From a virus, in the IMG/VR virus record IMGVR_UViG_3300023112_000003: a stretch of 42,816 nucleotides of DNA. The stretch is one strand, 5' to 3'. Below the pieces are notes generated by a model, which was not told the origin of the DNA, ran no database searches, and was given only the letters and a program-made list of their open reading frames with translations. The translations under genes and the position numbers were made by a program. This document shows, piece by piece, positions 6,255 through 38,739 of this stretch; the first letter of the stretch is position 1; each line of letters starts with the position of its first letter.

Positions 6255-6267
6255 TTTACCTCCTTAA

Positions 6268-7185
6268 CTAAGGGTTCCTCTTTTTAAACTCCTTAAATTG
6301 TTCTTCGAGTTCTGGTGGTACTACCCCTGTTTTTAGATAGGATTCAAGGGCTGCCGGAGTCTGAGGTAAGCCTGTTTTAGGAGTTACCAAACTGTTTACT
6401 GATTCTCTTCTGAAACTTCTAGTGGCTTGCCTCCCCGCTGTGGCTGGGTCTACAGAGATAGGATATACCAATGCTAATTGTTCCATAGCTTCGTCTACTG
6501 TCATAGCACCGTCTCTAACGGCTCCTGATAAGGCTATAACGTCTTCTTTAAAGCCGGGGATATCTGCACCCTCTGTTTCTTCCAGTGCTGTTAGGTATGT
6601 TCGATATCTAGAGCCGAAGTCTGCTGAGTCTTCTGCTGTGCCTGGGGCTGTCTTATCCGCCTGTTGTGCAGAGAACCTTCTTTCAGCTAGTTCGTTCTCT
6701 ATTCTTCTTTGTTCTTCATCAGACTGGAACTTCAACATCTCCAGTGCATCTTGTGCCTGTTGTGCCTCGGATTCTGCCTCAGCCCTCTTTCTCTTGGCTT
6801 GTGCCAAAAGTGAGTTTGCTTCTGCTTCTATGACGCCTGCTAAATCCCCTTCTTGCTGGGTTAATGCTGTGGCTTGTGTGCCCAGTGTTCCTAGGTTTTG
6901 TGCCCTTTGTCTTGATGTTAAAAAGTCTACACTTGTAGGGTCTACTATGTCTCCAGCACGTTCTTTAATCCCGATAGGATCACTTACTAGCTGTCCGGAT
7001 GTTGTACCAACGTCTTGTGCCAATGTACTTATACCCCTCTGTGCCCTGTCAGCCCTAACGGCTTCCATGACATTACCATGTAGAGATGTTGCTGTTGCTT
7101 CAAAACCACCTGCTCCTCTTGCTGTACTTGCGGCGGATTTTCTTTGTTCTTCTATTTTTCTAATATCAGATTCTTGTGTAGGCAT
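6268..7185 (-). CDS. internal virion protein candidate (305 aa, Ala/Gln/Glu-rich coiled coil)
   Basis: ORF in the same operon with a tight junction to neighbours. Composition is typical of ejection/core proteins. Confidence 0.5.
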   Translation of the reverse strand: MPTQESDIRKIEEQRKSAASTARGAGGFEATATSLHGNVMEAVRADRAQRGISTLAQDVGTTSGQLVSDPIGIKERAGDIVDPTSVDFLTSRQRAQNLGTLGTQATALTQQEGDLAGVIEAEANSLLAQAKRKRAEAESEAQQAQDALEMLKFQSDEEQRRIENELAERRFSAQQADKTAPGTAEDSADFGSRYRTYLTALEETEGADIPGFKEDVIALSGAVRDGAMTVDEAMEQLALVYPISVDPATAGRQATRSFRRESVNSLVTPKTGLPQTPAALESYLKTGVVPPELEEQFKEFKKRNP

Positions 7186-10824: not shown

Positions 10825-12404
10825 TGTTTGGTTTCCTCGTCTTCTCTAAACTTAGGTTTATAACCAACCTCAATTGTATGTAATTCATACATATTTTCTT
10901 TGCTGACCTCTTCTAGTAAGAATTTAATTCTCTTTCCAGATACCTTTAGTTTAATGAAATCCGAGAAACCGTCTACTTCGCCTATAGACTTCCATCCTTT
11001 GTCGTCTACTTTATATCTGACCTTGAGGCCACTTAAAAGCTCTCCATGTGCCCATAGTTCTCTGAAGTCATCAACTATCTTAGGCCCGCTGCCGTAAATC
11101 CAAGGCGTCTCAATAAAGGAAGAGAATGGTGCCGTGTTCTGGGTTCCTGATGTGAACATCTGGAATACTTCCCCGTCGTCGTTACCTATAAATAATTCTC
11201 TGCTGGAACTTGTTGTGAACATGTGGGCGTTCTTTACGCTGTCAGCTAGTTCAAGTCTGGACCAGTTATTTTGTAAAATGTTGTAGTCTAGGACCACGTT
11301 TGTTAGAGATCTACCATCAATGGAGACGTCCCCTATAAAGATATATAAATGATGTCCTCTTACCTGTGCTTTAATTTCTGATAGATTGGCTGTAGGTATA
11401 GCATCCCAGTAATCCTGTACTGGTAGGGAAATCTTAGTGTCTTGTCCACCATCGAATAGGTACATGCCGTCTGTTGAAGGCCAGAACAACCACTGTCCAT
11501 ATTCTGAGATACCCTCGTGTGAAACACAGCCGTGGTTAGATATCTGATATTTCTCGTCTGCTAATGTGAAAACATAACATCCGGCTTCGCCGCCAACAAA
11601 CATTCTCTCTCCTACCTTACCTGCCCCTGTGATGATGTCGTTAAACGTAATCCAAGCATCTGAAGCCCATGTGATAGGGGATGTTTCAGTTGTGGTTGAT
11701 CTGTAGGCTCTGCTGACGTGGGTTACGCCGTCGTAAACTGTATGTAATAAATAGATTCTGTCACCAAAATGGATGACATATTTAGCCTTTGGTGCTCCTA
11801 CGGTCTCCACAGCACTTGGGCTAGAGGAAACTGATGAGCTTTCAGAGGTTGAACTAGAGGCAGAAGAGCTAATAGAAGAGCTTGGGGAGTTACTTACCGA
11901 AAGGGAAGCACTCTCAGAGCTTGAAACTGAAGCTGAAGATGAAGCTGAAGATGATGTGGATGCTGATTCGGATGAGGATTCCTCACCTGTAGACCACTCT
12001 GTACCATCATAACTTCTTGTTGCGTCTGCGAAGTTAGCTACAAATAGTGTGTCTAAGGCCGGAGAATAGGCAAAGTCTACTTTATTTCCTGCTGTTAAAG
12101 CCTGTGATTGGCTTGTCCAGGTCCCTGTTACGTCCTTGTAGATACCTGCATTAGAAGCACCATCTATAGCAACGTAGTGTTCGTGTGTTCCGTCAGCCCT
12201 GGCAAAGTCTATACCACCTAGTATGTCCTGACCTGACGTTATTTGGGCGTTTTTAATTGCATAATCACCGGATTTCTTTAGGACCCCGATCTTACTGTAT
12301 ATAAAGTTTTGGATTTCAGCTAATTCACCGTCTTCAACGAGAAAGTGTGAGGCGTTTCTATTTATTCCTCCGGCGAGAGGTATTGTTTTATATTTAAATG
12401 CCAT
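10821..12404 (-). CDS. tail nozzle / tubular-B-like beta-propeller protein with internal poly-Ser insertion (527 aa)
   Basis: Repeated beta-blade-like segments (IYLLHTVYDG, MFVGGEAGCYVF, MYLFDGG, LYIFIGD). Ser-rich aa 142-197. Functional call rests on gene order only. Confidence 0.45.
   Translation of the reverse strand: MAFKYKTIPLAGGINRNASHFLVEDGELAEIQNFIYSKIGVLKKSGDYAIKNAQITSGQDILGGIDFARADGTHEHYVAIDGASNAGIYKDVTGTWTSQSQALTAGNKVDFAYSPALDTLFVANFADATRSYDGTEWSTGEESSSESASTSSSASSSASVSSSESASLSVSNSPSSSISSSASSSTSESSSVSSSPSAVETVGAPKAKYVIHFGDRIYLLHTVYDGVTHVSRAYRSTTTETSPITWASDAWITFNDIITGAGKVGERMFVGGEAGCYVFTLADEKYQISNHGCVSHEGISEYGQWLFWPSTDGMYLFDGGQDTKISLPVQDYWDAIPTANLSEIKAQVRGHHLYIFIGDVSIDGRSLTNVVLDYNILQNNWSRLELADSVKNAHMFTTSSSRELFIGNDDGEVFQMFTSGTQNTAPFSSFIETPWIYGSGPKIVDDFRELWAHGELLSGLKVRYKVDDKGWKSIGEVDGFSDFIKLKVSGKRIKFLLEEVSKENMYELHTIEVGYKPKFREDEETKQ
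11814..11981 (-). repeat. poly-Ser coding tract, 56 aa, inserted in 10821..12404
   Basis: ESSSESASTSSSASSSASVSSSESASLSVSNSPSSSISSSASSSTSESSSVSSSPS. Confidence 0.9.
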
Positions 12405-12407
12405 CTT

Positions 12408-13532
12408 TTACCAGTCATACATATCCTCACCAAAGATCACTTGAACTTTAGGAGAGGTTATTTTCTGTCTACCCTGTGCTAGGAATTCCATTAACTCCTC
12501 CATTGAGTCTTTGAATAGGCTTTTGAAGGTTGAGGCTGTGTCTTCGTCCTTAGTCAACCAAGCCTTATATAGAGCGTAATTTACCAATATATCCCTGGAA
12601 CCATAAGGTAATCCATGTTCTGAGGCCTCGGTGGACATTGATGTAGGTGCTTTCCAGTACCAAATAAATGCCATTCCAGAGCCACTAGGTGTTGGTCTAA
12701 TAACATAATTAGCTCCCCTAATAGCGATTTGTGGGTTTGTAGGAGAAAAGACCGTGTTTGACTCCCCCTCGAACTCACTTGTAAATTCAGCCTTGTAGGC
12801 GTTAGTTGCCACTGTGCCTGTAGGGTTTACGTCAACTCGGACGAAACCTAAGAAGTTAGTTGGTAATGTGTAAGTGGCTGTCCCGTTAGTCAAAGAGTCT
12901 GTTGTGTAGGCCTTTAAGAACTCTGGGAAGTATGTAAATATCTGATTTGTTACTTTTCTAACCCCGCCTTTAAGGTATTTGGCTACCTGTTCTCTGGTTA
13001 ACTCTTTACCTTCTGTGTCTCCGAAGTCTTCTAATACCTCGTCTGTCATAGACTTTAAGGAGTCATCTTCATATCCCGTGCCTTGAACAGCTACAGAAAG
13101 GGAAGAAAGGCTTGTTGTAGTAGCGTTGTAGTATCTAATCTTATACCAGGTAGATGAAGTACCTGCCGTGTCGTCGTATGATGTTATTGGCTGATCTAAT
13201 GTCAAATCTACTGTTGCCAAGAGGCTGTAAGAGCCACTCTCAGAAGAGGCACTGTAAATCTTAACCTGATTATATTTTATTTGGTAAATAGGAGTTCTGG
13301 CTGAATGTGCAAAGATAGGACCAGTTGTATGACCTATTGTTGTATTACCTGTAGTGCTTGTAAGCTTGATAATCTCTGTCAACTCTTCAGCAGGAACACC
13401 AAACACTGTGTAGTCGTTTGTTGCAAAACTTTTGTTATTTTCCACTGTCGAGGACGTGGCGGATGCCGCTACGTCTGTAGATAGTCTTGTATCTTGCGGT
13501 CCAAGTTTAGGATGTTCTATTTCGATTATCAT
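12408..13532 (-). CDS. head-tail adaptor / tail tubular-A-like structural protein (374 aa)
   Basis: Position between fibre and nozzle-like genes. N-terminal FN3/Ig-like segment (WYKIRYYN). Function inferred from order only. Confidence 0.4.
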   Translation of the reverse strand: MIIEIEHPKLGPQDTRLSTDVAASATSSTVENNKSFATNDYTVFGVPAEELTEIIKLTSTTGNTTIGHTTGPIFAHSARTPIYQIKYNQVKIYSASSESGSYSLLATVDLTLDQPITSYDDTAGTSSTWYKIRYYNATTTSLSSLSVAVQGTGYEDDSLKSMTDEVLEDFGDTEGKELTREQVAKYLKGGVRKVTNQIFTYFPEFLKAYTTDSLTNGTATYTLPTNFLGFVRVDVNPTGTVATNAYKAEFTSEFEGESNTVFSPTNPQIAIRGANYVIRPTPSGSGMAFIWYWKAPTSMSTEASEHGLPYGSRDILVNYALYKAWLTKDEDTASTFKSLFKDSMEELMEFLAQGRQKITSPKVQVIFGEDMYDW

Positions 13533-13548: not shown

Positions 13549-16500
13549 TTAGTCGTTATTAATAGTGAGTCTAATGCTTTCAGTACGGACTCTAAAAACG
13601 GGAATATCTTCAGCAACATCCCTGATACCGTGCTCTAAAATAGGAGCTGATGGGCTTGAGGACTCACTTGAAGAAACAGATGAGGATATTGAAGACGAGG
13701 CCGATGATGACACTGAAGAACTCTCTGATGAAGAGATAGATGGGCTCTCGGAAGATGATTCCGAAGATGATTCGGAACTAGACTCTGATGAAGAAGCCGA
13801 GCTACTTACTGATGATGACGGGCTTGAAGACTCCGATTCTGATTCTGACGAAGATGCAGAGCTGCTTTCTGACGAAGAGGCAGAAGATGATTCCGAGCTG
13901 GACTCGGAAGACGATACAGAACTGCTAACGGAAGCACTCTCAGATTGAGAAGAGCTCTCGCTTGAACTCACGGAAGAACTTACAGATGAAGATTCTGATG
14001 TTGAAGACGACTCCGAACTACTCTCGCTGGATGAAGCACTAGAGGATATAGAGCTACTCATAGAAGCACTCTCAGATTGAGATGCTGATTCCGAGCTAGA
14101 CACCGATGAGGATACACTAGAACTCTCAGACAAAGAGGCTGACTCGCTTGAGGAGGCGGAGCTAGATATTGAAGACGATGCTGAGGAGGACACAGAGGAA
14201 CTCTCAGACATAGATGCAGATTCTGAGCTACTTATAGATGACGATAAAGATGAGCTTGGTGACCCTGATGCCGACTCTGAGGATGAGACAGAGGAAGACT
14301 CCGAAGACGATTCTGACAATGAAGCGGACTCAGAACTGGATTCAGAAGAGCTTACAGAAGAACTAACAGAAGCACTTTCCGAACTTGATTCAGATAATGA
14401 CGCAGATTCTGAGGAAGATTCAGAACTACTGACTGAAGATGATTCTGAAGATATGTCTGAATAGACATAAAATATAGCGTCGAAAGCACCACTATAATCA
14501 TTCCAAGAACTACTTTCAAGGGATGCGTAGTTTCCTGGGTGACTCCCTATACTGCCGTTAGAAAGGCCTGCCTGTAAGTAGTCGGTAGCGTGACCAGGAA
14601 ATTCAACAGTTACTACATATTTTGTGTCATTTGTTAGCGTTATCTTGTTAGCCCCGGTGAAGTTGAATGATATTAAACCAAACGATGTAGTTATTGTAGA
14701 GATATCCACATTCTCGGACGTAGCCAATGCCGCCCCAGTAGGTACAGAGGAGCTTCCGTAAACCCCACTATGGGCATATATCTTGGAGACCATGTTACCT
14801 GTTGGGGAATTAACTTTTCTTAAATAAAACTTTGATAGTTTAAGTATCTCCCCGTTACCGTTAAATGATTGGGAGGTTGCATCTGTCACAGCATCGTGTG
14901 TGTTGTATGTGGTTTGGTTAGCTTCCGGGTGACTAGATACTATACTTGGTGGGATTTCCCCTTCTGAAGGTGATGGTGATTCACTAGATGACTCAGAACT
15001 ACTTATAGAACTGGAGGCAGATGATGACTCAGAGCTAGAAATGGATGAAGAAACACTGGAAGATTCGCTTGACGATTCTGATAATGATGCTGATTCGCTG
15101 GATGACTCGGAAGAGCTTGCTGAAGACGATATAGAACTGCTGGCTGACGAGGACGCAGATGAACTTTCCGAAAGTCCCTCCGCCGTCCAGAATGTACTTG
15201 GTGAGTTTTGGTTGTTGTAAACTGTAGTTACCCAATCATCTGTCCTAGACCCGTTAATAACTCTAGCCTCATCTAAAAGACCGGACATATAGTCAGCAGC
15301 GTTATCTCCAGCTCTTCCTAACGAAAAGTTTGAACTGGATGCAGTTGGAGAACCACTTGCTGTACCTTCAGTCTTAGTTGTGTTTACAAATATCTTTAAT
15401 TTAGTATTGGATGAATCATAGATACCAGTAATCAATCTCTGAGTACCCGTACCTGTATAGGCTGAGGCGGAGTATATCTCACTTGTAGTAGTAAGACCGT
15501 CCATTCTAAAAGAGAACTTATCAGCGTTACCGCCTCCTTGGTCTACCTTAGCCCTGAATAAGAACCTTGCAGAACCTCCCCCGCTGTCTCTTAATCCCAT
15601 CAGCTTCATGTTAACTGCATTATCGTCTCTTGCTACCCAAGCCTGAAATACCTGAGAACCAGATATATCAGTGTTTGCTGCTGCATTAGTTAGGTACTCT
15701 GTGGAAGCGTCATCAAAATCCCAACCATCTCCTATTTTAGCTGCAGCGTAATCTGGTGCTGTGCCTGGAGCCATGTGATATTCATTAGAAGTACTATCGT
15801 TACCACTGTTACCGTGCCAAACTCCTTGATAACCATTGCTCCATACAGCCTCACTACCATAAGAAGCTAAATCTCTAGCTTGCGGTGTAGCTGTAGCGTT
15901 GTCCCCCCATAGATAAATAGTATCGTCTGCATCGTATTGTAAAGTTGGAATCTTAACGTGTACCTCTGCGAGACTATTCTCTGTATCCCATGTAACTATT
16001 TCATGTGCAAGTTGTGTTGTTCCCGCTTCGTCTGAGGAGAATCTAACGTCTGCTCCTCCGTTGTACATAGCAGTTATTTCTGCGTCTGATAAAGCTCTGT
16101 CCCAAATGGCTACATCATCCAAAGTGCCATCCAGCGGGAAAAAGCCGTCATACTGTCTAGCTAGGTTGAAAGTACCGTTAACATCTGTTGCACTTCCAGT
16201 CGCAGATTCTTCGTATTTTACCCCGTTAACAAATATCCCAAGTTTACCCGCCGCTGAGTCATATCTACCAACAATGTGATACCAATTATTGATTTGGAGG
16301 GCAGTCGGGTGGATTACGCTTGTGTCCGTCAGACCAGGCATATCAAAACGTGGTTTGTATGTGGTGGCACTTATAATTAACCTTTTGTTTCCAGTTGCAG
16401 ATGACTTACTCATTAAATGATGCCAGTTAGCCAAAACATCTGGGTTAACCCAGCAACTCCATGTCTGTGAACCCGATATTTCTAAGTTCGCACAAGAAGC

Positions 16501-16848
16501 GTCTGCGACGGTTAGATAGTCACCTGCGGTGTCATCCGTTCTAACAAAGTCTGCACCATTACCAAACTTTGCTGCTGGGTATGAAGGGCCATCTGCCGTT
16601 GTCAAAGTATATCCATTACCAGAACTATCGGTTCCATCCGCTTCCAACCTCCAATAACCCTGTAAATTAGCGTCATTTAATAAATAGTTTGTGTTTATTT
16701 CCTGTCCCTGGGTATTGGTAAAAGTTCCAGCGGTAATTTCCGATTCAGTTATAAGTAATGGGATGTTGGTATGATCGGAAGAACCAGACACTTTCGTATT
16801 GTCTGTTGTTAGTTTTTCTAATGCTGTCCATCCAGTAGGGAATGCCAT
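13549..16848 (-). CDS. giant lectin-like fibre: LamG + DUF2341-like + LamG + poly-Ser + beta domain + 269-aa poly-Ser tail (1099 aa)
   Basis: Two Laminin_G_3 signatures: LDDVAIWDRALSDAEI at about aa 240-258 and LLDEARVINGSRTDDW at about aa 523-540. DUF2341-like DVRFSSDEAGTTQLAHEIVTWDTENSLAEVHVKIP..IYLWGDN. Ser-rich aa 559-628 and 799-1067. Confidence 0.8.
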   Translation of the reverse strand: MAFPTGWTALEKLTTDNTKVSGSSDHTNIPLLITESEITAGTFTNTQGQEINTNYLLNDANLQGYWRLEADGTDSSGNGYTLTTADGPSYPAAKFGNGADFVRTDDTAGDYLTVADASCANLEISGSQTWSCWVNPDVLANWHHLMSKSSATGNKRLIISATTYKPRFDMPGLTDTSVIHPTALQINNWYHIVGRYDSAAGKLGIFVNGVKYEESATGSATDVNGTFNLARQYDGFFPLDGTLDDVAIWDRALSDAEITAMYNGGADVRFSSDEAGTTQLAHEIVTWDTENSLAEVHVKIPTLQYDADDTIYLWGDNATATPQARDLASYGSEAVWSNGYQGVWHGNSGNDSTSNEYHMAPGTAPDYAAAKIGDGWDFDDASTEYLTNAAANTDISGSQVFQAWVARDDNAVNMKLMGLRDSGGGSARFLFRAKVDQGGGNADKFSFRMDGLTTTSEIYSASAYTGTGTQRLITGIYDSSNTKLKIFVNTTKTEGTASGSPTASSSNFSLGRAGDNAADYMSGLLDEARVINGSRTDDWVTTVYNNQNSPSTFWTAEGLSESSSASSSASSSISSSASSSESSSESASLSESSSESSSVSSSISSSESSSASSSISSSESSSESPSPSEGEIPPSIVSSHPEANQTTYNTHDAVTDATSQSFNGNGEILKLSKFYLRKVNSPTGNMVSKIYAHSGVYGSSSVPTGAALATSENVDISTITTSFGLISFNFTGANKITLTNDTKYVVTVEFPGHATDYLQAGLSNGSIGSHPGNYASLESSSWNDYSGAFDAIFYVYSDISSESSSVSSSESSSESASLSESSSESASVSSSVSSSESSSESASLSESSSESSSVSSSESASGSPSSSLSSSISSSESASMSESSSVSSSASSSISSSASSSESASLSESSSVSSSVSSSESASQSESASMSSSISSSASSSESSSESSSTSESSSVSSSVSSSESSSQSESASVSSSVSSSESSSESSSASSSESSSASSSESESESSSPSSSVSSSASSSESSSESSSESSSESPSISSSESSSVSSSASSSISSSVSSSESSSPSAPILEHGIRDVAEDIPVFRVRTESIRLTINND
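13648..14454 (-). repeat. poly-Ser coding tract, 269 aa, C-terminal region of the 1099-aa fibre
   Basis: Residues 799-1067 are almost entirely S with periodic E/A/V/L/I/P (SSSESASLSESSSESxSVSSS...). Confidence 0.95.
14965..15174 (-). repeat. poly-Ser coding tract, 70 aa, internal linker of the 1099-aa fibre
   Basis: Residues 559-628: LSESSSASSSASSSISSSASSSESSSESASLSESSSESSSVSSSISSSESSSASSSISSSESSSESPSPS. Confidence 0.95.
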
Positions 16849-16865: not shown

Positions 16866-17837
16866 TTATAGCGTGGGAGTAGAGTCCTTGACCTGTTGTA
16901 GCTCCTCTTCTGTCCAGCCTGGAACAGGCCAGAATTTCTCTAGAAGCCATGACAGGGGCAAAATCTGTCCCTCAAAAGTGCTGTTGTAAAATACTTCTTT
17001 CGCTTTCTTCTTGGCCCTTCTTACTTGACTTCCGGGTAACTTGTATGGAAACCCAAAATCCCCTCCTTGAGTTCTAAACATATGTCCATAATAGGTGTCG
17101 TGGTTTATTACCACTCTCCCACCAGAAAGCCATGTTTTTACTGCCACTTCGATGCCTTGAGATCCCCAACTACCAAATGTTTCGCTATCGCAGATCTTCA
17201 ATTCCCAATATTTGTCTCTAGTCATCATAAAACAAGACCCTTGTAAGGACATGGAGTCTGTTAAACCCTCTCTTTCTAGGGCCTCTAGATACTCATGTCT
17301 CTTATAGTATTCTCTAAAGTATTGAAAGTGTGGTTCTGAATCGAATCTATAAGCCCTGCTCTGTGGGTTGGTCTTAGCCACCCACATCATTTTTCTTCTT
17401 ATCTTATCCGTCTTGCCACAATCAGGGCATTTATCTGGGGTTCTACCTTGGTAGGTCTTCCATCCGCAGTGATAACATTTCCAATCAAAAGCCCAAAGGT
17501 TTCTCATTATAGGGGCCATAGTGTAGTTATCCTTCATCTTAGCCATCATTTTTACATCAAAACCTTTGTCAAATGCACAATGAGCGTCAACCTTCATCAC
17601 ATACTTAGCCTCAGACAGCTTACAAGCCTCATTTGTGGCCTCTCTCTGTCCTACAGACACTGGGTGGTATATGATGGTCACTCTGTCGTCCTGAACGACT
17701 GGGGGGTCACTCCAGGCCCCGTCGAGCACTGCTATAATTTCGGTGTTACCTTCAATGTTCTCTAAGGCATTCTCTATAGTTTTTGCCAAAAATATTTCAT
17801 TCCTAGATGGGATTAAGATGGATAGGTCGTATTTCAT
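16866..17837 (-). CDS. GT2-family glycosyltransferase (GT-A fold, DxH type) with Zn-ribbon insertion
   Basis: LSILIPSRNE, VLDG, KVDAHCAF, GSQGIEVAVKTWLSGGRVV. CYHC..CPDC insertion at aa 121-141. Paralogue of 20466..21356. Confidence 0.8.
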   Translation of the reverse strand: MKYDLSILIPSRNEIFLAKTIENALENIEGNTEIIAVLDGAWSDPPVVQDDRVTIIYHPVSVGQREATNEACKLSEAKYVMKVDAHCAFDKGFDVKMMAKMKDNYTMAPIMRNLWAFDWKCYHCGWKTYQGRTPDKCPDCGKTDKIRRKMMWVAKTNPQSRAYRFDSEPHFQYFREYYKRHEYLEALEREGLTDSMSLQGSCFMMTRDKYWELKICDSETFGSWGSQGIEVAVKTWLSGGRVVINHDTYYGHMFRTQGGDFGFPYKLPGSQVRRAKKKAKEVFYNSTFEGQILPLSWLLEKFWPVPGWTEEELQQVKDSTPTL

Positions 17838-19060
17838 ATATCCTCCAAGATACTTAGATCAACAGTATTGCTTGCAACCAAGGTTTCACTGAGACACCCC
17901 TTGTACCTGTAAATATATTTGAAGTGTTCTGGAATTCTCCTATAGCCATAGAATCTGTCTAATTCCTCCTCGGCATCATGCATTATAATGAAATCGGCGT
18001 TATCCTTTAACCTAATAGCATCTATATGTCTTCTCTTAGCTGGTTTGTGGTCTATTAAGACAACTCCCCAATGAGTATCGTCGATATCTGCTAGATTCCA
18101 ATTGTCTATTTTTTCCACTTTGTGGTAATCGCTATGATATTGTCTATTTATTTCATAGTATTTAGGATCATTCTCATAAGATAGGATTTGTCTTTTCTCT
18201 TTAGCACACATCATGTCTATTAAAGGGGTGCTGTATTGTCCCATACCCATCTCTAAAACGGGCCCCTCGGATAGACTCAGGGCTCTAGATAGAACAGGCA
18301 TATGGGTCCCCCCTAGATCATTGTCTTTAAAGTTAGGTGAATTAGGTGGTCGCCACAGATCCATAACATCGTTTACAGACCCCCATGGGTTTAGCCAATC
18401 TCCTCTAAGATTTCCTAGTTGTTTGTTGGGACCTGGTCTTCCTCCTGTTATATATCCTAGAGCGTGTTCGTGTGAGAAAACTACATTAGGATAAGCAGAG
18501 TAGTGTTCTTCTGTCTTTACTGGGGTCACACCAAGGTGTTTATCGTACCTACCTGGCTCACCGCAATATTTGTTATCGTATTCGGGATATTTGGCAAACC
18601 TTTCTTCCATAGCCTTAATGAATAGTTCTCTATTACATACCATTGAGTTAATAATCTTTCGTCTCCTCCAAGAGAAAACTAAAGGATCCGACCATGTAAA
18701 AAAGGAATATTTGTTCATCTCATAGGAGATAGTGTCACTCTTTGGCCTATGGTGGAAGTAGTCAGGTGAGTACAAAACGTCGTCTTCTGCCATTGCAATA
18801 TACTCAGTCTTGGCTGCCTTGGCTCCAATTAGTATTTGCATAAACACATTCTTAAAAGATCTTCCTATATCCCCAACGCAGATGTTCTCTCCGAAATCCA
18901 TGGGTTGGTGAGAGACAGAGATCAAAGGGGTATCTAGTATAGACTCCTTTAAGATTCTTCTAGTGTTCTCTACAAAGTAGGGATTGGTCTTGTCTAGGTG
19001 ATTAGCCGTATAATAGATGACAGTGAGGTCACTATGAGTCTTCGGTTTGGCATGCTTCAC
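17834..19060 (-). CDS. two-domain protein: GT-A-like N-domain + Rossmann/class I methyltransferase-like C-domain (408 aa)
   Basis: LTVIYYTAN..IAMAEDDVLY (acidic DxD-type motif). C-terminal GPVLEMGMGQYST..VVLIDHKPAKRR resembles SAM-MTase motifs I and post-II. GTG start overlapping the HNH stop (GTGA). Confidence 0.55.
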   Translation of the reverse strand: MKHAKPKTHSDLTVIYYTANHLDKTNPYFVENTRRILKESILDTPLISVSHQPMDFGENICVGDIGRSFKNVFMQILIGAKAAKTEYIAMAEDDVLYSPDYFHHRPKSDTISYEMNKYSFFTWSDPLVFSWRRRKIINSMVCNRELFIKAMEERFAKYPEYDNKYCGEPGRYDKHLGVTPVKTEEHYSAYPNVVFSHEHALGYITGGRPGPNKQLGNLRGDWLNPWGSVNDVMDLWRPPNSPNFKDNDLGGTHMPVLSRALSLSEGPVLEMGMGQYSTPLIDMMCAKEKRQILSYENDPKYYEINRQYHSDYHKVEKIDNWNLADIDDTHWGVVLIDHKPAKRRHIDAIRLKDNADFIIMHDAEEELDRFYGYRRIPEHFKYIYRYKGCLSETLVASNTVDLSILEDI

Positions 19061-19428
19061 AGTATTTTATCCTTCCCGTTGCCAAACTCACGCTTCTCTA
19101 TCCTTTTTATTGTATTACAGTTTGCACATAATAGCTGATAACTATTTTCTCTATTCTCCATGACTTTTTTGTAAAAACCAATTACTTGTTTATTTCTATC
19201 TTTCCTACCACCACCATTAACATGGTCTATTTGCAAAGCTCTAATGTCGTCGAAACCACAATGCACACAAGCACCACCCAAATGGTCTAATACTTTTTTA
19301 CGCCATTCTTTCCTGTAGACCTTATGTTTTGTTAACACCTTTAGTTTATTGTTATCGTAATATATCTTCTGTCTGGGATATTTTATCCCAGTTAAGTCGT
19401 CGTGTGTTTTAGGTTTAGCGTGTTTCAT
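19057..19428 (-). CDS. HNH endonuclease (free-standing, inside the glycosylation island)
   Basis: CVHCGF..LQIDHVNGGG..N..LLCANCNTIK; 123 aa. First 13 residues duplicate the N-terminus of the downstream GT gene. Confidence 0.85.
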   Translation of the reverse strand: MKHAKPKTHDDLTGIKYPRQKIYYDNNKLKVLTKHKVYRKEWRKKVLDHLGGACVHCGFDDIRALQIDHVNGGGRKDRNKQVIGFYKKVMENRENSYQLLCANCNTIKRIEKREFGNGKDKIL

Positions 19429-19949
19429 TTTTTATACCACCAACAGGGGTAGCCTTTCTTTTCTTTTAATAAATTCAATTCTACATCTAGTATATCTATC
19501 CATTCATCTACTGCGGACTTTACCCCGTACCTATCACCATCATCGTGGTAGTCGTGTCCCGCCACTATCCCTCCTTCTCTTACCTTATGGTGCCACTCTC
19601 TAATATCCTCAACTGTATGTTCATAGTCGTGGTTAGCGTCTATATAAACAAAGTCTAAGGAGCCGTCCTCAAACTCTTTAACCGCATCCATAGAATAGGC
19701 CTTAATCATGAAGCAATTGTCAAAAGGTTCTAGTCTGTCCTTAGCGTACTCATAAAACTTCTTTGGTGAGTTCTGATTAGCATAGGACTCCCAAGGATCA
19801 ATAGAATATAGAGTTAGGTTTGGGACCTTCTGTAGTAAACACTTAGAGAACCTGCCTAGTTCCACACCTATTTCTGCACCTATAGTGTATCCGTTCTCTT
19901 CAAATAGCTTGGGAAAGTAGTCCCATCTCCTACCTTTTACTATATTCAT
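19425..19949 (-). CDS. class I SAM-dependent methyltransferase (Methyltransf_24/TylF-like, candidate sugar O-methyltransferase)
   Basis: GAEIGVELGRFS..LYSIDPW..LDFVYIDANHDYEHT..GGIVAGHDY. Confidence 0.7.
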   Translation of the reverse strand: MNIVKGRRWDYFPKLFEENGYTIGAEIGVELGRFSKCLLQKVPNLTLYSIDPWESYANQNSPKKFYEYAKDRLEPFDNCFMIKAYSMDAVKEFEDGSLDFVYIDANHDYEHTVEDIREWHHKVREGGIVAGHDYHDDGDRYGVKSAVDEWIDILDVELNLLKEKKGYPCWWYKK

Positions 19950-20476
19950 ATCTTTTTAAACTTGGCGTATTCCCTTCTGTCATGCGGATAAACCGTTATT
20001 GGCCCTTCCAACTTAAATCCGTAGCTCTCTATTAATGCAGTTAGTTCTGTAGGTGTCCACTCCTGAACATGGCGTTTTTCTAAACGTGCTCTCTTGATTG
20101 GGTTAACGACATACAGATAGTCTTCTAAGACCCTGTAAGCCTCTCTAAGAGCTTTTTCAGGTTCTTCTAGGTGTTCTAGCGTGTCACCAAATAACGCAGC
20201 AGAGAACGTACCATCATCCCAGGGGAGCTCATAAGCACTGCCTAATATTACGTTTGCTTCGTGTTCGTTGGCAAGTTTTACACCAGTAGGTTCATTATCT
20301 ATACCAGTAAACCCCATTAAACCAGTAATAAGACCGTCTCCGGCCCCTATATCAAGTACGTTCTTTTCCTTTATCCAATCTTTGATTATCTGGACGTGTT
20401 TATATGTTTTGGTTGTGGGGTCTTCGTATTCTCTCCAATGGTAGTCACCTTTTTTGTCATATTTATCAAACCTCAT
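19946..20476 (-). CDS. class I SAM-dependent methyltransferase (Methyltransf_11-like)
   Basis: VLDIGAGDGLITG motif I; AALFGDTLEHLEEPEKALREAYRVL. Start taken at MRFDKY (20476); an alternative ATG is at 20515. Confidence 0.75.
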   Translation of the reverse strand: MRFDKYDKKGDYHWREYEDPTTKTYKHVQIIKDWIKEKNVLDIGAGDGLITGLMGFTGIDNEPTGVKLANEHEANVILGSAYELPWDDGTFSAALFGDTLEHLEEPEKALREAYRVLEDYLYVVNPIKRARLEKRHVQEWTPTELTALIESYGFKLEGPITVYPHDRREYAKFKKI

Positions 20477-21356
20477 ATTTCTGGTATTCCTCGGGCCAAC
20501 CAGGAACAGGGCCATATGTATCGGTGAATTTAGCTATTAACCATTCGATTGGGTATATTTGTTTGTGAAACATTGTTCCCATCTCCATCCATCCTAAGAA
20601 AGGATCTGGGTTGGGGTGGAATGTTCCTTTAGGTACAGGGTATCCTCTACCATACTTCTTACCTTTATGTAGGTGTGCGTACCAAGTAGCTTTGTTTCTA
20701 ACTACCCTACCCCCTGATAACCAGCAGTTTAATCCTATTTCCAGAAACTCATTCCAGAAAGGCCCATACTGTTCTTCATTACAAAGCTCTAGTTCATAGA
20801 AATAATCCTTATGCATAAACCAACAGGAACCTTGTGCTGACATTAAATCAACGATATGTTCCTCTGGTAATGGATCTTTATTATTCAATTCTTTCCAGAG
20901 ATCTCCGTGGAGTCCTCTTTTTCTACCATCTGCTAATTCCAAGTATGGGTATGTTAGATACATGTAGTCAATATCTGGTCTGCCGTCTTCGGTGAATACC
21001 CAAGCCTCTGGGTCTAGTCTCTTTCTTTTAGGTACAACTACCCAGTTCTTCTCGCAGTCTGCAACGAGCTTAACATCATAGCCCTCATCTAGCATACAAT
21101 GGGCGTCAATTTTCATGATGTATTTACCTTTGGCTATAGCAACAGCTGAAGCAATCCCATTTCTCATGCCGTGGGATTTTCCTCTGTGGATAATATGTAA
21201 TCTGTCGTCTTCTGGGAGTTCGTTGGGTTCGGTCCAATAACCATCTAATATAACAATAATCTCAATCTCTCCTCTGGCTTTCTCCAGTAAATCTTTTACC
21301 GTCTTGCCTAGGAAACGCTCATTTCTCGATGGTATTACTACTGATACAACGGGCAT
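20466..21356 (-). CDS. GT2-family glycosyltransferase (GT-A fold, DxH type)
   Basis: VSVVIPSRNE, ILDG, KIDAHCML, NEFLEIGLNCWLSGGRVV. Start taken at ATG 21356 (MPVVSVV), 6 nt downstream of TATAAT; the track ORF begins at GTG 21371. Confidence 0.8.
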   Translation of the reverse strand: MPVVSVVIPSRNERFLGKTVKDLLEKARGEIEIIVILDGYWTEPNELPEDDRLHIIHRGKSHGMRNGIASAVAIAKGKYIMKIDAHCMLDEGYDVKLVADCEKNWVVVPKRKRLDPEAWVFTEDGRPDIDYMYLTYPYLELADGRKRGLHGDLWKELNNKDPLPEEHIVDLMSAQGSCWFMHKDYFYELELCNEEQYGPFWNEFLEIGLNCWLSGGRVVRNKATWYAHLHKGKKYGRGYPVPKGTFHPNPDPFLGWMEMGTMFHKQIYPIEWLIAKFTDTYGPVPGWPEEYQKYEV

Positions 21357-21368
21357 AAATTTATTATA
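21354..21368 (-). promoter_or_regulatory. TATAAT-N6-ATG leaderless-type promoter/start (GT2 gene)
   Basis: Minus strand reads GTGTATAATAAATTTATG. Confidence 0.45.
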
Positions 21369-21391
21369 CACGAATTGTAGGGAGGTGCAAA

Positions 21392-21754
21392 CTATGCTTC
21401 TATGTAGAGATAGACTGTAAACTCAACGTCAGCGTTATTCTGCTCGGCAGATGCCGTGACTGTTACTGTTACTGGTCCAACACATGGGATTCTAAGAGGT
21501 GTTTCCTCTGTAGCTCCAAATGCTTGGCTAATATCAAGAGTTGTTGAACTCTCGGCTAGGGAACCAACTTCATATATAGTGACGTTGTTTACGTCAGTTA
21601 TTTTAACTGTGTAAGTATCTGAACCATCCAAAGCCCCTGCTGTGGAAGCAACACCTACTATAAATCCTGCTGGGATCTCTTGTGTAGCAGATGCAATAGC
21701 TGTACTTTCGTCAACTATGGTTAATGGAATCGCAATACTTTGTACTTTTGCCAT
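21392..21754 (-). CDS. hypothetical beta-rich protein (120 aa), possible minor structural protein
   Basis: ORF with TATAAT-N6-ATG start, located inside the late operon. Confidence 0.5.
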   Translation of the reverse strand: MAKVQSIAIPLTIVDESTAIASATQEIPAGFIVGVASTAGALDGSDTYTVKITDVNNVTIYEVGSLAESSTTLDISQAFGATEETPLRIPCVGPVTVTVTASAEQNNADVEFTVYLYIEA

Positions 21755-21766
21755 ATGTATATTATA
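21752..21766 (-). promoter_or_regulatory. TATAAT-N6-ATG leaderless-type promoter/start (120-aa gene), extended -10 TGA
   Basis: Minus strand reads TGATATAATATACATATG. Confidence 0.5.
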
Positions 21767-21784
21767 TCAGGTAAGGGGGAAAGG

Positions 21785-22000
21785 TTACACAATGGTTTTC
21801 TTATTCATCATCCTGGCGACCATCTTTGAGATCTCCATTATGTCATCATCACCAACGTCCTCTTTTTTCCTGTCGATCTGGGAGTTGTAATAATCAAGGA
21901 AAGTCATCATATCTTGGACACTATTGAAGTCCTCTAAATCAATCTTTCCTTTAGCTTCCATCTTTCCTTTTAGTTCTTTGAACTTGTGAGGTTTAGGCAT
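21785..22000 (-). CDS. hypothetical protein (71 aa)
   Basis: ORF overlapping the stop of the upstream GT gene by 8 nt. Confidence 0.45.
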   Translation of the reverse strand: MPKPHKFKELKGKMEAKGKIDLEDFNSVQDMMTFLDYYNSQIDRKKEDVGDDDIMEISKMVARMMNKKTIV

Positions 22001-22670
22001 CTGGGAAGCTCGTCTTTCCAGTCTGGGCTGCGTAAGCCACTAGGTTAGCGATCCAGAGCAAATCTACCATCTTATAATGAGATCCAACATGGTTGAAATC
22101 CACAAAGACGGGAATATCTAATTTTTTACATTTAATACAGAAGGACATATCGTCGTTTGTTATCATAGTACCGTCTTCTTTAAACATATCGTTGAATGGG
22201 CCCCCAAACTCTTCTACCACCCTCTCTATTACATCTCTTTTAATACACATTAATCCTGTACCCACAGCATCTACTTGTTTTACCCCGTCTCTAAACTCAA
22301 GTGGGTACTGCTTAAATCCTACTTCTTCTGGGAAGTTTTCTCCAAACTGATAGACATGGAAATGCACACCCCTCTCACTCCTGCCTGGGTAAACTCCTGC
22401 TATAACTGGTTTATCTTCGTCTAATAGGTCAAATGGGTTTATGTGCGGGGGGTTGTCGTCATCAACCATAAATAGATAGTCCCAATCTCCTTCTAAGAAG
22501 TCTTTAACTATCTGATTTCTGTTATTAGCAATTGGTCTTGCGGAGGGGAAGAATATGCGAAATTCGTAGTCTTTGGCCTTTTCCTGCATCCAGGCAAATA
22601 GGCTAGTTTCAAATCCGGTAATTGTTGTGCCTTGATTTAACACGTTTACCATTACTTTCTTTCTTGTCAT
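21993..22670 (-). CDS. GT-A fold glycosyltransferase (DxD type)
   Basis: 225 aa; YLFMVDDDNPP acidic metal motif, then GTGLMCIKRDV and DDMSFC segments typical of small GT2-like enzymes. Confidence 0.6.
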   Translation of the reverse strand: MTRKKVMVNVLNQGTTITGFETSLFAWMQEKAKDYEFRIFFPSARPIANNRNQIVKDFLEGDWDYLFMVDDDNPPHINPFDLLDEDKPVIAGVYPGRSERGVHFHVYQFGENFPEEVGFKQYPLEFRDGVKQVDAVGTGLMCIKRDVIERVVEEFGGPFNDMFKEDGTMITNDDMSFCIKCKKLDIPVFVDFNHVGSHYKMVDLLWIANLVAYAAQTGKTSFPDA

Positions 22671-22687: not shown

Positions 22688-22715
22688 AAAGCCCCGTATG
22701 TTTCAACGAGGCTTT
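22688..22715 (-). terminator. hairpin between the decoration-like gene and the GT-A gene (weak terminator/attenuator candidate)
   Basis: Minus strand reads AAAGCCTCG-N10-CGGGGCTTT: 9-bp stem with one G-U pair. Confidence 0.3.
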
Positions 22716-22726
22716 TGCATTCAGCG

Positions 22727-23545
22727 TTATGCGGATGGTGATGGGCTCTCTGAGCTTGATTCTGAAGAGCTTGTACTTAATGACGAGCTGGCAGAACTTG
22801 AGGCTGAGGAGCTGATTGAGCTAGAAGCAGAACTGGATACAGAACTACTAATAGATGCGGAAGCAGATTCTGAGCTACTTTCTGAACTAGATTCTGAGGC
22901 TGACTCGGAGGCCGACTCGGAACTAGAAGCGGAGGAGCTGACAGAACTACTTACAGAAGCTGATGCTGATTCAGAACTACTCTCGGAAGAGCTGACTGAT
23001 GCAGATGAGCTTGCTGAGCTACTCTCTGAGCTGCTCACGGAAGCTGAAGAGCTTGCGGAACTGCTTATTGAAGAGCTCGCTGAAGAGCTGATAGATGAGC
23101 TTGCTGAATTGCTCAAAATATCTTGCCCTGTAATAGATCTAAATTCTAGTTCTACAACCATGTTTCTAAGGTCCGTAGTGGTTCCTGAGAAATCAAGGCC
23201 TACTCTATCACCCTCTTTAAACTTGGTGACGAAAGGAACTAGGTGTTTAGCTTTAGCTATGTCTACTGTATCAACTGTAACTACTGTACTTGCGGTGGAT
23301 TCTAGATCGAAAGAAGAGGACAGAAGGTCATTACCTTCGGTTGATGTCTCTGTGTTTCTTAACTTCTCTACCATAAGGGTAGCGGTTGCTCCTGCTGCGA
23401 CTGTGTGAACCTCCTTAATGGAGACCAATTCGCAATCTTCAGGGACTATTCCGATAACTACATCTGAGAAGCCATGGGACAATTGGTACCTAATAACAAA
23501 GCTATTTCTATGTGTTTCAACTATATTTCTTAATTTTATTGCCAT
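22727..23545 (-). CDS. head decoration/cement-like protein with 128-aa C-terminal poly-Ser tail (272 aa)
   Basis: The first ~140 aa are paralogous to 23583..23981: VVIGIVPEDCELVSIKEVH vs KVIGIMPVRAQLVAVKEVH; EGDRVGLDFSGTTTDL vs AGDRVGVNMTGTTTSL. Residues 145-272 are SSSxSxS repeats. Confidence 0.6.
   Translation of the reverse strand: MAIKLRNIVETHRNSFVIRYQLSHGFSDVVIGIVPEDCELVSIKEVHTVAAGATATLMVEKLRNTETSTEGNDLLSSSFDLESTASTVVTVDTVDIAKAKHLVPFVTKFKEGDRVGLDFSGTTTDLRNMVVELEFRSITGQDILSNSASSSISSSASSSISSSASSSASVSSSESSSASSSASVSSSESSSESASASVSSSVSSSASSSESASESASESSSESSSESASASISSSVSSSASSSISSSASSSASSSLSTSSSESSSESPSPSA
22730..23113 (-). repeat. poly-Ser coding tract, 128 aa, C-terminal tail of the decoration-like protein
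   Basis: Residues 145-272: SNSASSSISSSASSSISSSASSSASVSSSESSSASSSASVSSSESSSESASASVSSS...SESPSPSA. Confidence 0.95.
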
Positions 23546-23582: not shown

Positions 23583-23981
23583 TTAGGCGTCTACTGGTCT
23601 AAACTGACAAGCAACGATCATTGTGTCTAAGGATGTTGTTGTTCCAGTCATATTAACTCCGACTCTGTCTCCAGCTTCGAATATATGAATGTTACTGGCT
23701 GTGACGATTGTTCCAGACTGTACGGTGTCTGCTGTGCCTTCTGCATCAATTGTTGCAGCAACCACCTGATCTCCTGTTCCGGATGTTTCTGTGCCCTGTA
23801 ATCTTTCGATAGATACGGTACAAGTTTGTCCTGCGGCGGTTCCATGAACCTCTTTAACAGCTACTAATTGTGCCCTAACAGGCATTATCCCGATAACTTT
23901 ATCAACCACAGTTGCGGACTGTAGGTCAGTTATTAGGAATGTGTCTCTTGCTTCTACGTCTAAGTTTCTTCTGTATATCAT
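23583..23981 (-). CDS. head decoration/cement-like protein (132 aa)
   Basis: Immediately downstream of the capsid gene and its terminator. Strong SD (GAAAGAAGGTGA). Paralogue of the N-domain of 22727..23545. Confidence 0.55.
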   Translation of the reverse strand: MIYRRNLDVEARDTFLITDLQSATVVDKVIGIMPVRAQLVAVKEVHGTAAGQTCTVSIERLQGTETSGTGDQVVAATIDAEGTADTVQSGTIVTASNIHIFEAGDRVGVNMTGTTTSLDTMIVACQFRPVDA

Positions 23982-24000: not shown

Positions 24001-24036
24001 ATTTAAATACAATAACCCCCTCCACTAGGAAGGGGG
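24001..24036 (-). terminator. intrinsic terminator downstream of the capsid gene
   Basis: Minus strand reads CCCCCTTCCTAGTGGAGGGGG (GC-rich stem with one bulge) followed by TTATTGTATTTAAAT. Confidence 0.6.
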
Positions 24037-24105
24037 CCATGTTTTGGATAGTTTACCCCTCTTGCGAGGATACTTCATTTATAGTTTGAATAAACTCTTA
24101 GATGT

Positions 24106-25311
24106 TTATTGAACGTCTCTAAGGAACGAGTGAGCTCTAGGACGATCTGTTACGAAGTCTGCGTACCAGTAAAGGACGGCTTCATAAGCATCGGAACCTG
24201 AAACTCTAGATAGAACTGCTCCATCTTTGTCCATCCAGGACCAGCTGTTCATTTGCATTATCTGCAAGTGATCTGTGTCTATGAAGAACAAAGTGTTAGG
24301 CATACAGTCTACGTCTGCAACTAAAGGTACTCCATTGATTTCTAATCCCTTGAAGCCACCATCTAGATCCATTGTGTTAACGTATCGCTTGTCGGCTACG
24401 ACTAAAGCTGCGTAAGCATCTCTCATGTCGTGGTCACCGATAACCATTTTTACGCTACCACCGTTCTTCTCTACTGCTGAGAACCCTGCTTGAATCAATG
24501 GGAGGGTTAAGTCTCTCAAAGTTCCAGAGTTACTGTCATTAGTAAATGTAGAACACTTCCACCATGCGTAGGTACCTCTTGCGAGACCGTGCAAAGTGTT
24601 AACGTAGGTGTTGTCGTCGACAATACCCTTTAATCCCATCATTTCGTAGGATGTCAATGCCTCGTCTGTTGCGTTAGCTCTAGATACGATGTCATTGTCA
24701 GCTACGTCAGCGTTGATAGCTGCGGAGAGTGTTACTTCTGTGGAAGAGTCAACTGTAGATACAGTTAAGTCGTTACCTGAAGTTGTTAATGCTCCTGTTG
24801 CTGGGTCAAGAATGTCGATAAGCATACCCTCAAAGAAGTAGTTAGTACCGGGAGCGTCCAATGTCAATGTTGTACCTGTGCCAGGATCTCCGTTAATAAC
24901 GGCTCTTGTACCTGTACCATCGTTATGAAGCTGGTAGTTAATGTCTTTCTTTAAGTCGCGTGTTACACCCTTAATTTCGGAATCTAGTGCCCTTACGATT
25001 GCTCCAGTGTCATTCCTAGAAGCAGCGATAGTAGGTCCGGAAACCTGGATTCTACCTCTGTTGTATTTAACAACACCATTAGGATTCAAGTAAGCTTGAT
25101 TTCCTGCTGTTGGTAGTGCGGTTTCTGTACCTGCACCAATTCCTGAGTTTCTCTGGTAGTGAGCAACTGTTTGCCACTGTTTACCAGAAACGTCTCTTTC
25201 GTTTCGTTGTACCTTGTTTAAAAGTACTGTAGCACTTTCCAACTGTTCTCTTACCACTGGTAAGTAGTCAATCTTTAGTGCTTCATCGAAGTTTGTTAAT
25301 GTTTGTGCCAT
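24106..25311 (-). CDS. major capsid protein (HK97-fold type)
   Basis: 401 aa, placed after the scaffold gene and followed by a strong hairpin terminator. Composition and length are typical of HK97-like capsid proteins. Confidence 0.75.
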   Translation of the reverse strand: MAQTLTNFDEALKIDYLPVVREQLESATVLLNKVQRNERDVSGKQWQTVAHYQRNSGIGAGTETALPTAGNQAYLNPNGVVKYNRGRIQVSGPTIAASRNDTGAIVRALDSEIKGVTRDLKKDINYQLHNDGTGTRAVINGDPGTGTTLTLDAPGTNYFFEGMLIDILDPATGALTTSGNDLTVSTVDSSTEVTLSAAINADVADNDIVSRANATDEALTSYEMMGLKGIVDDNTYVNTLHGLARGTYAWWKCSTFTNDSNSGTLRDLTLPLIQAGFSAVEKNGGSVKMVIGDHDMRDAYAALVVADKRYVNTMDLDGGFKGLEINGVPLVADVDCMPNTLFFIDTDHLQIMQMNSWSWMDKDGAVLSRVSGSDAYEAVLYWYADFVTDRPRAHSFLRDVQ

Positions 25312-38738: not shown

Positions 38739-38739
38739 T

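Follow-up and report, generated by a model that had tools for sequence, protein, structure and literature searches.

Here we analysed a 42,816-nucleotide stretch of viral DNA (the window; IMG/VR record IMGVR_UViG_3300023112_000003) and focused on a gene island at positions 16866-22670 of its minus strand, which carries glycosyltransferase (GT) and methyltransferase genes within the late structural block. Two of the GTs, encoded at 16866-17837 and 20466-21371, are remote homologues of the polypeptide GalNAc-transferases (ppGalNAc-Ts, family GT27) as judged from sequence alignments and a predicted structure, and comparative evidence links genes of this type to serine (Ser) tracts in nearby proteins. 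We consider it probable that the phage O-glycosylates the Ser tracts of its own virion proteins, stepwise and in the cytoplasm, and methylates the added sugars, using a module borrowed from its host.

The 16866-17837 product (323 amino acids, aa) and the 20466-21371 product (301 aa, or 296 aa from the ATG at 21356) both matched PF00535 (2.2e-11 and 1.8e-13, respectively). They are 35% identical, and DAHC, WLSGGRV and the His after it are present in both. The top PDB sequence matches were ppGalNAc-T1 (2.6e-5), then T10, T9 and T2, for the 323-aa protein, and ppGalNAc-T2 (4.6e-4) for its 301-aa paralogue, with the alignments of both spanning DxHC, WGxxxxExxxxxWxxGG and GHxFR. The AlphaFold2 model of the 323-aa protein had a predicted local distance difference test score (pLDDT) of 83 and a predicted template modelling score (pTM) of 0.83. 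When it was searched with Foldseek against the PDB, in a library that also contained bacterial GT2 structures, the best 50 matches were all GT27 enzymes (E down to 5.7e-14, TM-scores of 0.62-0.70). The earlier note on this DNA had described the pair as paralogous GT2 enzymes with a DxH motif and a Gal/GalNAc-T-like layout, and had suggested a comparison with GT2/GT27 structures; the PDB alignments, the Foldseek result and an alignment of 25 homologues all agree with that description.

In these 25 homologues, D39, D84-A-H86-C87, E230, W236, G239-G240 and H252 are invariant, and D84-A-H86 and H252 align with DAHCE/DSHCE and GHVFR of GalNAc-T1, T2 and T10. The GT-A fold with DxH and a third His, the Mn2+ ligands of GT27, was found in the sequence and in the fold match. 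The Gal/GalNAc-T motif (WGGENxExSxRxWxCGG in GT27) is degenerate here (SWGSQGIEVAVKTWLSGG), with the W, G, E230, W236 and GG kept and the central residues differing. Loop 256-266 of the 323-aa model, directly after the third His, has low confidence and may correspond to the flexible catalytic loop of GT27 enzymes. A CxxC...CxxC insert with nearly invariant C121, C124, C137 and C140 is a feature of the 323-aa type and is absent from the 301-aa paralogue; its assignment as a Cys4 zinc ribbon is backed by weak rubredoxin-type matches. The 323-aa protein ends about 70 residues past the catalytic core. A ricin-type lectin domain (PF00652) was matched neither in proteins of the window nor in ten long representatives of the family, and no transmembrane helix was found in any island protein (maximum 19-residue Kyte-Doolittle score of 0.61 for the 16866-17837 product). 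Because the family-defining lectin domain and membrane topology are absent, we refer to the two enzymes as GT27-like and not as members of GT27.

The candidate acceptors are four virion proteins encoded on the same strand. The 272-aa paralogue of the capsid-decoration protein ends in a tail with 88 Ser in 137 residues (22730-23140), and the fibre has a C-terminal tract with 187 Ser in 286 residues (13624-14481) and an internal one with 54 Ser in 91 residues (14932-15204). A further tract (38 Ser in 71 residues, 11793-12005) lies between two conserved domains of a 527-aa tail or virion protein, and another (47 Ser in 84 residues, 9333-9584) in a 429-aa protein. These tracts of 71-286 residues are about 65% Ser (414 Ser in total), vs 4.9% Ser in six other proteins, and the major capsid protein (24106-25311) has none. 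Orthologues of the decoration paralogue in three other loci (L071, L078 and L089) likewise end in Ser tracts. At the DNA level the tracts form weak, degenerate tandem repeats, which argues that they are not simple recent repeat expansions. The concanavalin A (ConA)-like domains of the fibre (Laminin_G_3) sit in the same virion protein as two of these tracts.

To relate the tracts to the GT genes, we surveyed 64 non-redundant loci with a GT homologue for same-strand Ser tracts in 2-kilobase (kb) bins. Tracts were found in 23/50, 21/37 and 18/30 loci in the first, second and third bins downstream of the GT gene, vs 2/58, 4/56 and 6/53 in the corresponding upstream bins (Fisher p = 2e-18, without correction for relatedness). 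Of the 27 viral loci, 21 have a tract that begins no more than 3 kb downstream, and in a related 65-kb phage the gene after the GT homologue carries a Ser tract. We also fetched relatives through the capsid protein, which gave a close clade of 8 GT27-like-positive and 6 negative loci. Ser tracts were present in 7/8 of the former vs 0/6 of the latter (Fisher p = 0.0047); seven distant GT-negative loci were also tract-free, and p was 6.9e-5 with these included. A direct comparison was offered by the 527-aa protein, which is 57% identical over its full length to its orthologue in the GT27-like-negative phage L070, with a single 58-residue gap that is exactly the Ser tract. The coupling of the GT2 paralogues to Ser-rich tracts, as the earlier note had suspected, is supported by the positional bias, the co-occurrence of DxH-type GT2 genes and Ser-tract proteins within the viral clade, the indel in L070 and the gene neighbourhoods of Patescibacteria.

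The 323-aa protein has 5,530 database relatives. Among the 120 listed, most were 64-71% identical and one was 96% identical, and the named ones belonged to Levybacteria, Curtissbacteria, WWE3 and the "Patescibacteria group". A scan of species-representative genomes found the gene in metagenome-assembled genomes (MAGs) of Levyibacteriota, Daviesbacteria, Woesebacteria, Paceibacterota and Saccharibacteria. Copies that are 61-66% identical were also seen on twelve MAG contigs titled "uncultured Gammaproteobacteria", "Pseudomonadales" or "Thermoplasmatales"; these may reflect wrong record titles, or the gene may be more widely spread.

A Levybacteria cluster contains a 67%-identical GT, a homologue of the second GT, three Methyltransf_24 genes, a GDP-heptose-type pathway and, as separate genes, both halves of the 408-aa fusion protein that the phage encodes at 17834-19060. 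The 20466-21371 product is 37% identical to a 295-aa GT of this cluster, and the contig also carries TatAC, uppS and ribosomal protein L33. In clusters of other Patescibacteria there are also DegT aminotransferases, Polysacc_synt_2 dehydratases and numerous copies of the GT-A family of about 230 aa. Since the same genes cluster in Patescibacteria, we do not regard the island as particular to phages; its gene content makes it a compact version of a cellular cluster that is widespread in these bacteria, taken from the host. The phage probably infects an ultrasmall member of the Patescibacteria, and the shared cluster points to a host that is probably of the Microgenomates type.

In the Levybacteria genome, genes for a GT and a UDP-glucose dehydrogenase are followed by one for a 1,539-aa protein made up almost entirely of SPSV-type repeats, which is a candidate major cell-surface glycoprotein. 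In the MAG GCA_001782715.1 (locus L004, 12205-16824) this protein has SPSV, SPSQ and SPSA repeats between globular ends of about 210 and 100 residues, and its length varies from 1,257 to 1,539 aa across three assemblies.

We propose the following order of events. During late infection the phage would produce four structural proteins that bear long disordered Ser tracts, namely the capsid-decoration paralogue, the ConA-like fibre, the 527-aa tail protein and the 429-aa protein. The two soluble GT27-like enzymes would start the glycan by direct transfer from a UDP-sugar to the hydroxyl groups of Ser, the donor plausibly being an N-acetylhexosamine (HexNAc) or 6-deoxy-HexNAc derivative made with the help of a PglF-like dehydratase of the phage. 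The novel GT-A domain of the 17834-19060 product would lengthen the glycan, two S-adenosylmethionine (SAM) methyltransferases would then methylate the sugars, and head and fibres would end up covered by glycans like those of the host. What the analysis shows directly is the homology of folds and motifs, the arrangement of the genes and the co-occurrence statistics. We infer from these which proteins accept the sugar (indicated by gene neighbourhood and co-occurrence with Ser tracts), which donor is used, in what sequence the enzymes act and what the phage gains (stability, adhesion, or a mimic of the glycoprotein coat of its host). Direct stepwise transfer in the cytoplasm fits because the island proteins are without transmembrane segments and lipid-carrier enzymes were not found; family scans of the open reading frames (ORFs) detected no flippase, oligosaccharyltransferase or polyprenyl-phosphate GT. 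A seroconversion or lipid-carrier reading was set aside, given that the island proteins have no transmembrane helix and that GtrB came no higher than rank 38, as a distant match of the generic GT-A kind, in the Foldseek search with the N-terminal half of the fusion.

The proposed elongating enzyme is this N-terminal half (residues 1-237, 18350-19060), which was modelled with confidence (AlphaFold2 pLDDT >85 over residues 1-200). Its Foldseek matches show a generic GT-A fold, with SpsA (1.1e-6), the fucosyltransferase WrtF and heparosan synthase among them. E92, D94 and Y97 are invariant, D93 is nearly so, and E-D-D-x-L-Y is conserved. The family is without a Pfam model, and Woesebacteria and further Patescibacteria encode it as separate proteins of roughly 240 aa; it is joined to methyltransferase domains in three further proteins (P0191, P0198 and P0230), and the related phage L001 holds three paralogues. 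The C-terminal half (residues 245-408, 17834-18328) is Rossmann-like; its homologues form proteins of their own, 170-179 aa long, in L004 and L001, or occupy an N-terminal position (P0147 and P0221). G22, E26, G28, G30, S33, D93, H117 and D118 are invariant, including a G-x-G motif. Its methyltransferase matches were below threshold (2b25 at 0.07 and 3r3h at 0.83 in a PDB profile search, 0.1-0.2 for the best in a Pfam scan of 16 members, and a probability of 0.1 in hhalign against the Methyltransf_24 alignment), and its AlphaFold2 pLDDT was <45. The 408-aa protein had been described as a GT-like domain fused to a Rossmann domain of methyltransferase type; the first part stands on its fold and model confidence, and the methyltransferase assignment of the second is unconfirmed.

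Two separate genes encode SAM methyltransferases, which we propose to act on sugars. The 19946-20515 product (189 aa) is a class I enzyme of the Methyltransf_11 type (PF08241, 4.6e-14, plus PF13649, PF13847 and PF13489), and a 172-aa Methyltransf_11 gene is also found in the Curtissbacteria cluster (L073). The 19425-19949 product (174 aa) belongs to Methyltransf_24 (PF13578, 7e-19) and is 35-43% identical to two of the Methyltransf_24 genes in the Levybacteria cluster. Fusions of Methyltransf_24 with GT27-like domains occur in other organisms (P0301, P0382 and P0336), which supports a shared pathway. With the C-terminal half of the fusion unconfirmed, two of the three methyltransferase-type domains counted in the earlier note stand. 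Several family representatives (P0301, P0310, P0314, P0336 and others) reach up to 1,352 aa and combine three to four GT27-like stretches with Methyltransf_24 in one polypeptide.

Outside the island, a plus-strand gene at 40717-41469 encodes a soluble UDP-HexNAc 4,6-dehydratase (250 aa) of the PglF/CapD/PseB type (PF02719, 2.6e-50), with STDK and YxxxK motifs and PDB matches to PglF/WlaL (4.5e-34), then CapD, FlaA1 and CapE. In phage L001 the homologous gene directly abuts GT genes. The dehydratase probably belongs to the pathway and supplies the donor sugar, and its presence suggests a donor of the 6-deoxy-HexNAc type. Directly upstream lies a 134-aa ORF (40316-40720, plus strand) with HNH-like His/Cys motifs (HPHHIIGRK..., CPTHH) and no family match, which may be a second homing endonuclease beside a glycosylation gene.

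Several observations weigh against glycosylation of the virion as we propose it. With 16-18% identity and sequence E-values of about 1e-5, the two paralogues are only remotely similar to GT27, and they lack the lectin domain by which GT27 enzymes direct dense glycosylation. GT27 enzymes favour Thr and Pro-rich contexts, whereas the tracts of the phage consist of Ser almost throughout, along with Glu and Ala. In the genome loci the GT gene is usually several kb from the tract (2/14 start within 3 kb and 7/9 within 8 kb). The GT27-like-positive locus L085 shows no tract, on a contig that ends about 250 bp past the final island gene that was detected. The loci behind the co-occurrence statistics are phylogenetically related, not independent, and the negative set is small, with six loci, some of them partly covered. 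The identity of the donor is a guess; at 250 aa the dehydratase is short, and its score falls under the PseB cut-off of NCBIfam. Phage and host are both uncultured.

An alternative that we regard as unlikely is that the island is a host-directed auxiliary metabolic module, which maintains or remodels Ser-rich surface proteins or envelope glycans of the host in the interest of adhesion to a partner cell or of superinfection exclusion. That the island genes are 37-67% identical to cellular Patescibacteria genes lying beside giant Ser-Pro proteins is compatible with this, as is the published view of sugar genes in Patescibacteriota phages as auxiliary metabolic genes (AMGs) that boost host surface adhesion (PMC12911398). 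However, the genes lie within the late structural block in tight coupling to the fibre gene, the tracts are carried by the phage's own virion proteins, and no integrase was found among the ORFs that were scanned. Nor would a purely host-aimed function predict that relatives without the GT genes are also without tracts.

In a second alternative, the tracts would be unmodified flexible or hydrophilic linkers, with the GTs and methyltransferases building an unrelated glycoconjugate (e.g., an oligo- or polysaccharide carrying methyl groups, or a small molecule with sugars attached) and the association reflecting no more than shared ancestry or habits of the hosts. Polyserine linkers occur elsewhere as plain flexible spacers, and other bacteria have them without proven glycosylation. 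The novel GT-A domain resembles enzymes acting on saccharides (SpsA, WrtF and heparosan synthase), and the statistics are not corrected for phylogeny. We nevertheless judge this decidedly unlikely, given the sharp positional bias (same strand, immediately downstream) that recurs in divergent phages and cells, the peptide-acting nature of all the nearest solved structures of the GT2 paralogues, and the lack of any membrane, export or polymerase component among the genes found.

Glycosylation of phage DNA against restriction, a common role of phage GTs (PMC12619734) that could accommodate the conservation of the 225-aa GT-A gene (21993-22670) regardless of Ser tracts, is highly improbable here, as neither a hydroxymethylase nor a thymidylate-synthase-like or other gene for base modification was found among the scanned ORFs of the complete genome, the two GT27-like proteins match enzymes that act on proteins and the nearest solved relative of the 225-aa protein is A197 of Sulfolobus turreted icosahedral virus (STIV). 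The earlier note's preference for protein over DNA as the substrate is supported by the GT27 sequence and structure matches and by the coupling to Ser tracts. Its statement that DNA-modification genes are lacking holds for the scanned ORFs of at least 90 aa; two TTG-start ORFs of about 100 aa fell outside the scan.

Glycosylation of virion Ser tracts by GT27-like enzymes would resemble mucin-type initiation by GT27 in animals and Toxoplasma in several respects: the GT-A fold, DxH with a downstream His, a degenerate Gal/GalNAc-T motif (W-G-x4-E-x5-W-x2-G-G), a putative flexible loop after the third His, and a candidate acceptor that is a dense, disordered tract of the Ser/Thr type. GT27 enzymes differ in having a lectin domain and a signal anchor with stem and in residing in the Golgi, whereas the phage enzymes are predicted to be cytoplasmic and are without these parts; one phage paralogue has the inserted Cys4 zinc ribbon, and the tracts are dominated by Ser and are not Thr/Pro-rich. 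A wider and more tentative proposal, which we hold to be almost as likely as not, is that Patescibacteria and their phages own a true prokaryotic counterpart of mucin-type O-glycosylation, in which soluble lectin-less GT27 relatives act directly on poly-Ser or Ser-Pro sequences in the cytoplasm, followed by the unmodelled GT-A family and sugar methyltransferases, and that phages captured this module with insertable Ser-tract cassettes and use it to clothe heads and fibres in glycans resembling those of the host. If true, no bacterial family would be more closely related to the eukaryotic initiators of mucin glycosylation, a relationship that is open to test.

To our knowledge, phage-encoded virion glycosylation has so far been shown experimentally in a few mycobacteriophages only. 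In Che8, Corndog and Myrna, the phages' own GTs modify C-terminal extensions of capsid and tail-tube proteins, according to the summaries of Freeman et al. 2023 in PMC12363180 and PMC12619734. The present system is alike in its phage-encoded GTs and in having phage structural proteins as candidate acceptors. The acceptors differ, being capsid and tail-tube subunits there and, as candidates, a decoration paralogue, a fibre and tail proteins with Ser tracts here. The island also differs in being a copy of a host cluster with methyltransferases and a nucleotide-sugar dehydratase. The novelty here would lie in the family of the enzymes, in the design of the acceptors (insertable Ser tracts) and in the group of hosts.

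A second point of comparison is the serine-rich repeat protein (SRRP) pathway of Gram-positive bacteria, in which soluble GTs encoded beside the acceptor gene O-glycosylate long Ser-rich repeats stepwise in the cytoplasm (PMC5207161, PMC6973325). Ser-rich acceptors, the stepwise cytoplasmic logic and GT genes adjoining acceptor genes would be common to both. The SRRP initiator GtfA/GtfB is a GT-B (GT4) GlcNAc transferase complex, whereas the candidate initiators of the phage are GT-A and GT27-like, and all GT domains of the island are GT-A. Family scans and the transmembrane check found no Sec-type or other membrane component in the island, and the sole sequence link to SRRP glycosylation was a weak N-terminal match to GalT1 (5hea, E 0.0077 to 0.23).

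A survey of Patescibacteriota phages read sugar genes and "concanavalin A-like" genes as host-directed AMGs (PMC12911398). The ConA-like gene at 13549-16848 of the window looks like a virion fibre from its domains and position, and such sugar and "concanavalin A-like" genes may be virion-modifying enzymes and virion components, not host-boosting AMGs. Literature searches for GT27 or Ser-rich glycosylation in phages or in bacteria of the Candidate Phyla Radiation (CPR) turned up no account of such a system. The module occurs in thousands of sequences from Patescibacteria, whose surface biology is almost unknown, and the loci name candidate glycoproteins; the small soluble enzymes could also serve glycoengineering of Ser-rich tags.

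The fourth GT of the island, encoded at 21993-22670 (225 aa), appears to stand apart from the Ser-tract module. Single-sequence Pfam and PDB searches gave no match, and weak matches to PHROG glycosyltransferase families were obtained. A profile of its 49-member family, all of whose members keep D70 and D72 of the DDD motif, matched STIV A197 (2c0n, 1.1e-5), with procollagen galactosyltransferase next (0.03), in line with its first description as a GT-A enzyme with a DDD motif. STIV A197 is usually discussed in connection with capsid glycosylation. Like A197 and the capsid or fibril enzymes of giant viruses, it is a virus-encoded minimal GT-A, a type thought to glycosylate virion proteins; we know of no proof of the substrate of A197 itself. 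The phage gene is independent of the Ser-tract module. It was found in GT27-like-positive and GT27-like-negative relatives alike, and it lies shortly downstream of the capsid/decoration genes in five negative, tract-free ones (L070, L075, L077, L086 and L088). Because it is kept in relatives without GT27-like genes or tracts, it is probably a separate, clade-wide module with another target.

The island also contains an HNH homing endonuclease gene that the earlier note overlooked (19057-19428, 123 aa; PHROG 2255, 9.4e-12). The ORF opens with MKHAKPKTHDDLT, which copies the first 13 residues (MKHAKPKTHSDLT, 19022-19060) of the downstream GT with many synonymous DNA differences. It looks like a homing-endonuclease insertion that brought flanking coding sequence from another allele, and on this evidence we class it as a selfish passenger outside the pathway. 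Comparable elements were seen in GT27-like genes elsewhere. Locus L071 has an N-terminal GT fragment followed by two HNH-like ORFs, and its homologue of the 323-aa GT is interrupted in frame, after residue 183, by about 190 additional residues (5299-6994 and 11546-12838). P0297 carries a Hint/LAGLIDADG intein near residue 120, and P0311 is a GIY-YIG/NUMOD3 fusion. Judging from these insertions, GT27-like genes attract selfish elements. Two small minus-strand ORFs of the island had no family match: a 71-aa ORF (21785-22000), with a 40%-identical homologue at the same position in L071 and L072, and a 120-aa ORF (21392-21754), which on comparison showed no similarity to the decoration protein.

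An exact 127-bp terminal overlap (positions 1-127 = 42690-42816) indicates that the window is a complete circular assembly with 42,689 unique bp, and blastn of the island against 50,697 GenBank phage records gave no match. The minus-strand late block runs from the large terminase (phrog_38, 4.3e-77) and portal (phrog_156, 1.4e-39) through the major capsid protein (phrog_14242, 2.2e-75), a small 132-aa decoration protein (23583-23981) and its 272-aa paralogue (22727-23545; 40% identical in the shared domain) to the island. Beyond it follow the 1,099-aa fibre (two Laminin_G_3, 3.5e-34, plus DUF2341), an SU10-type adaptor (PF24175, 5.3e-17), more tail proteins and an M23-type lysin. The island itself comprises four GT-A domains, two Pfam-confirmed SAM methyltransferases, the HNH endonuclease and the two small ORFs. 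Its genes from 19946 down to 16866 are joined by four-base overlaps, and the fibre gene starts 17 nt past the stop of the 16866-17837 gene. All four GT genes of the earlier note are borne out (PF00535 for two, the family profile match to 2c0n and the GT-A fold match), each ORF that it named is present on the minus strand, and the capsid and adaptor matches confirm its placement of the island between the capsid/decoration genes and the fibre and tail genes. Two starts are ambiguous: the longest ORFs are 20466-21371 (GTG) and 19946-20515, and the earlier note used internal ATGs at 21356 and 20476.

A promoter and terminator scan was uninformative on operon boundaries because counts were at or below shuffle expectation, and only a hairpin after the capsid gene was prominent. 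This GC-rich hairpin (24012-24040, minus strand), a strong one with 12 pairs and in part followed by Ts, is located immediately past the stop of the capsid gene and may attenuate transcription into the decoration and glycosylation genes. A plus-strand ORF of 236 aa at 22698-23408, rich in Glu, Leu and Asp, is the antisense of Ser-tract codons and is almost certainly no real gene; similar antisense ORFs lie over the fibre gene. Elsewhere in the window, a minus-strand ORF across the circular junction carries DnaQ-like exonuclease motifs (DIET..., HNGDAFD), and a GroES-GroEL pair is encoded at 38457-40335 on the plus strand (Cpn10, 1.9e-18; GroEL phrog_5725, 2.4e-132), which is unusual for a phage genome of 42.7 kb.

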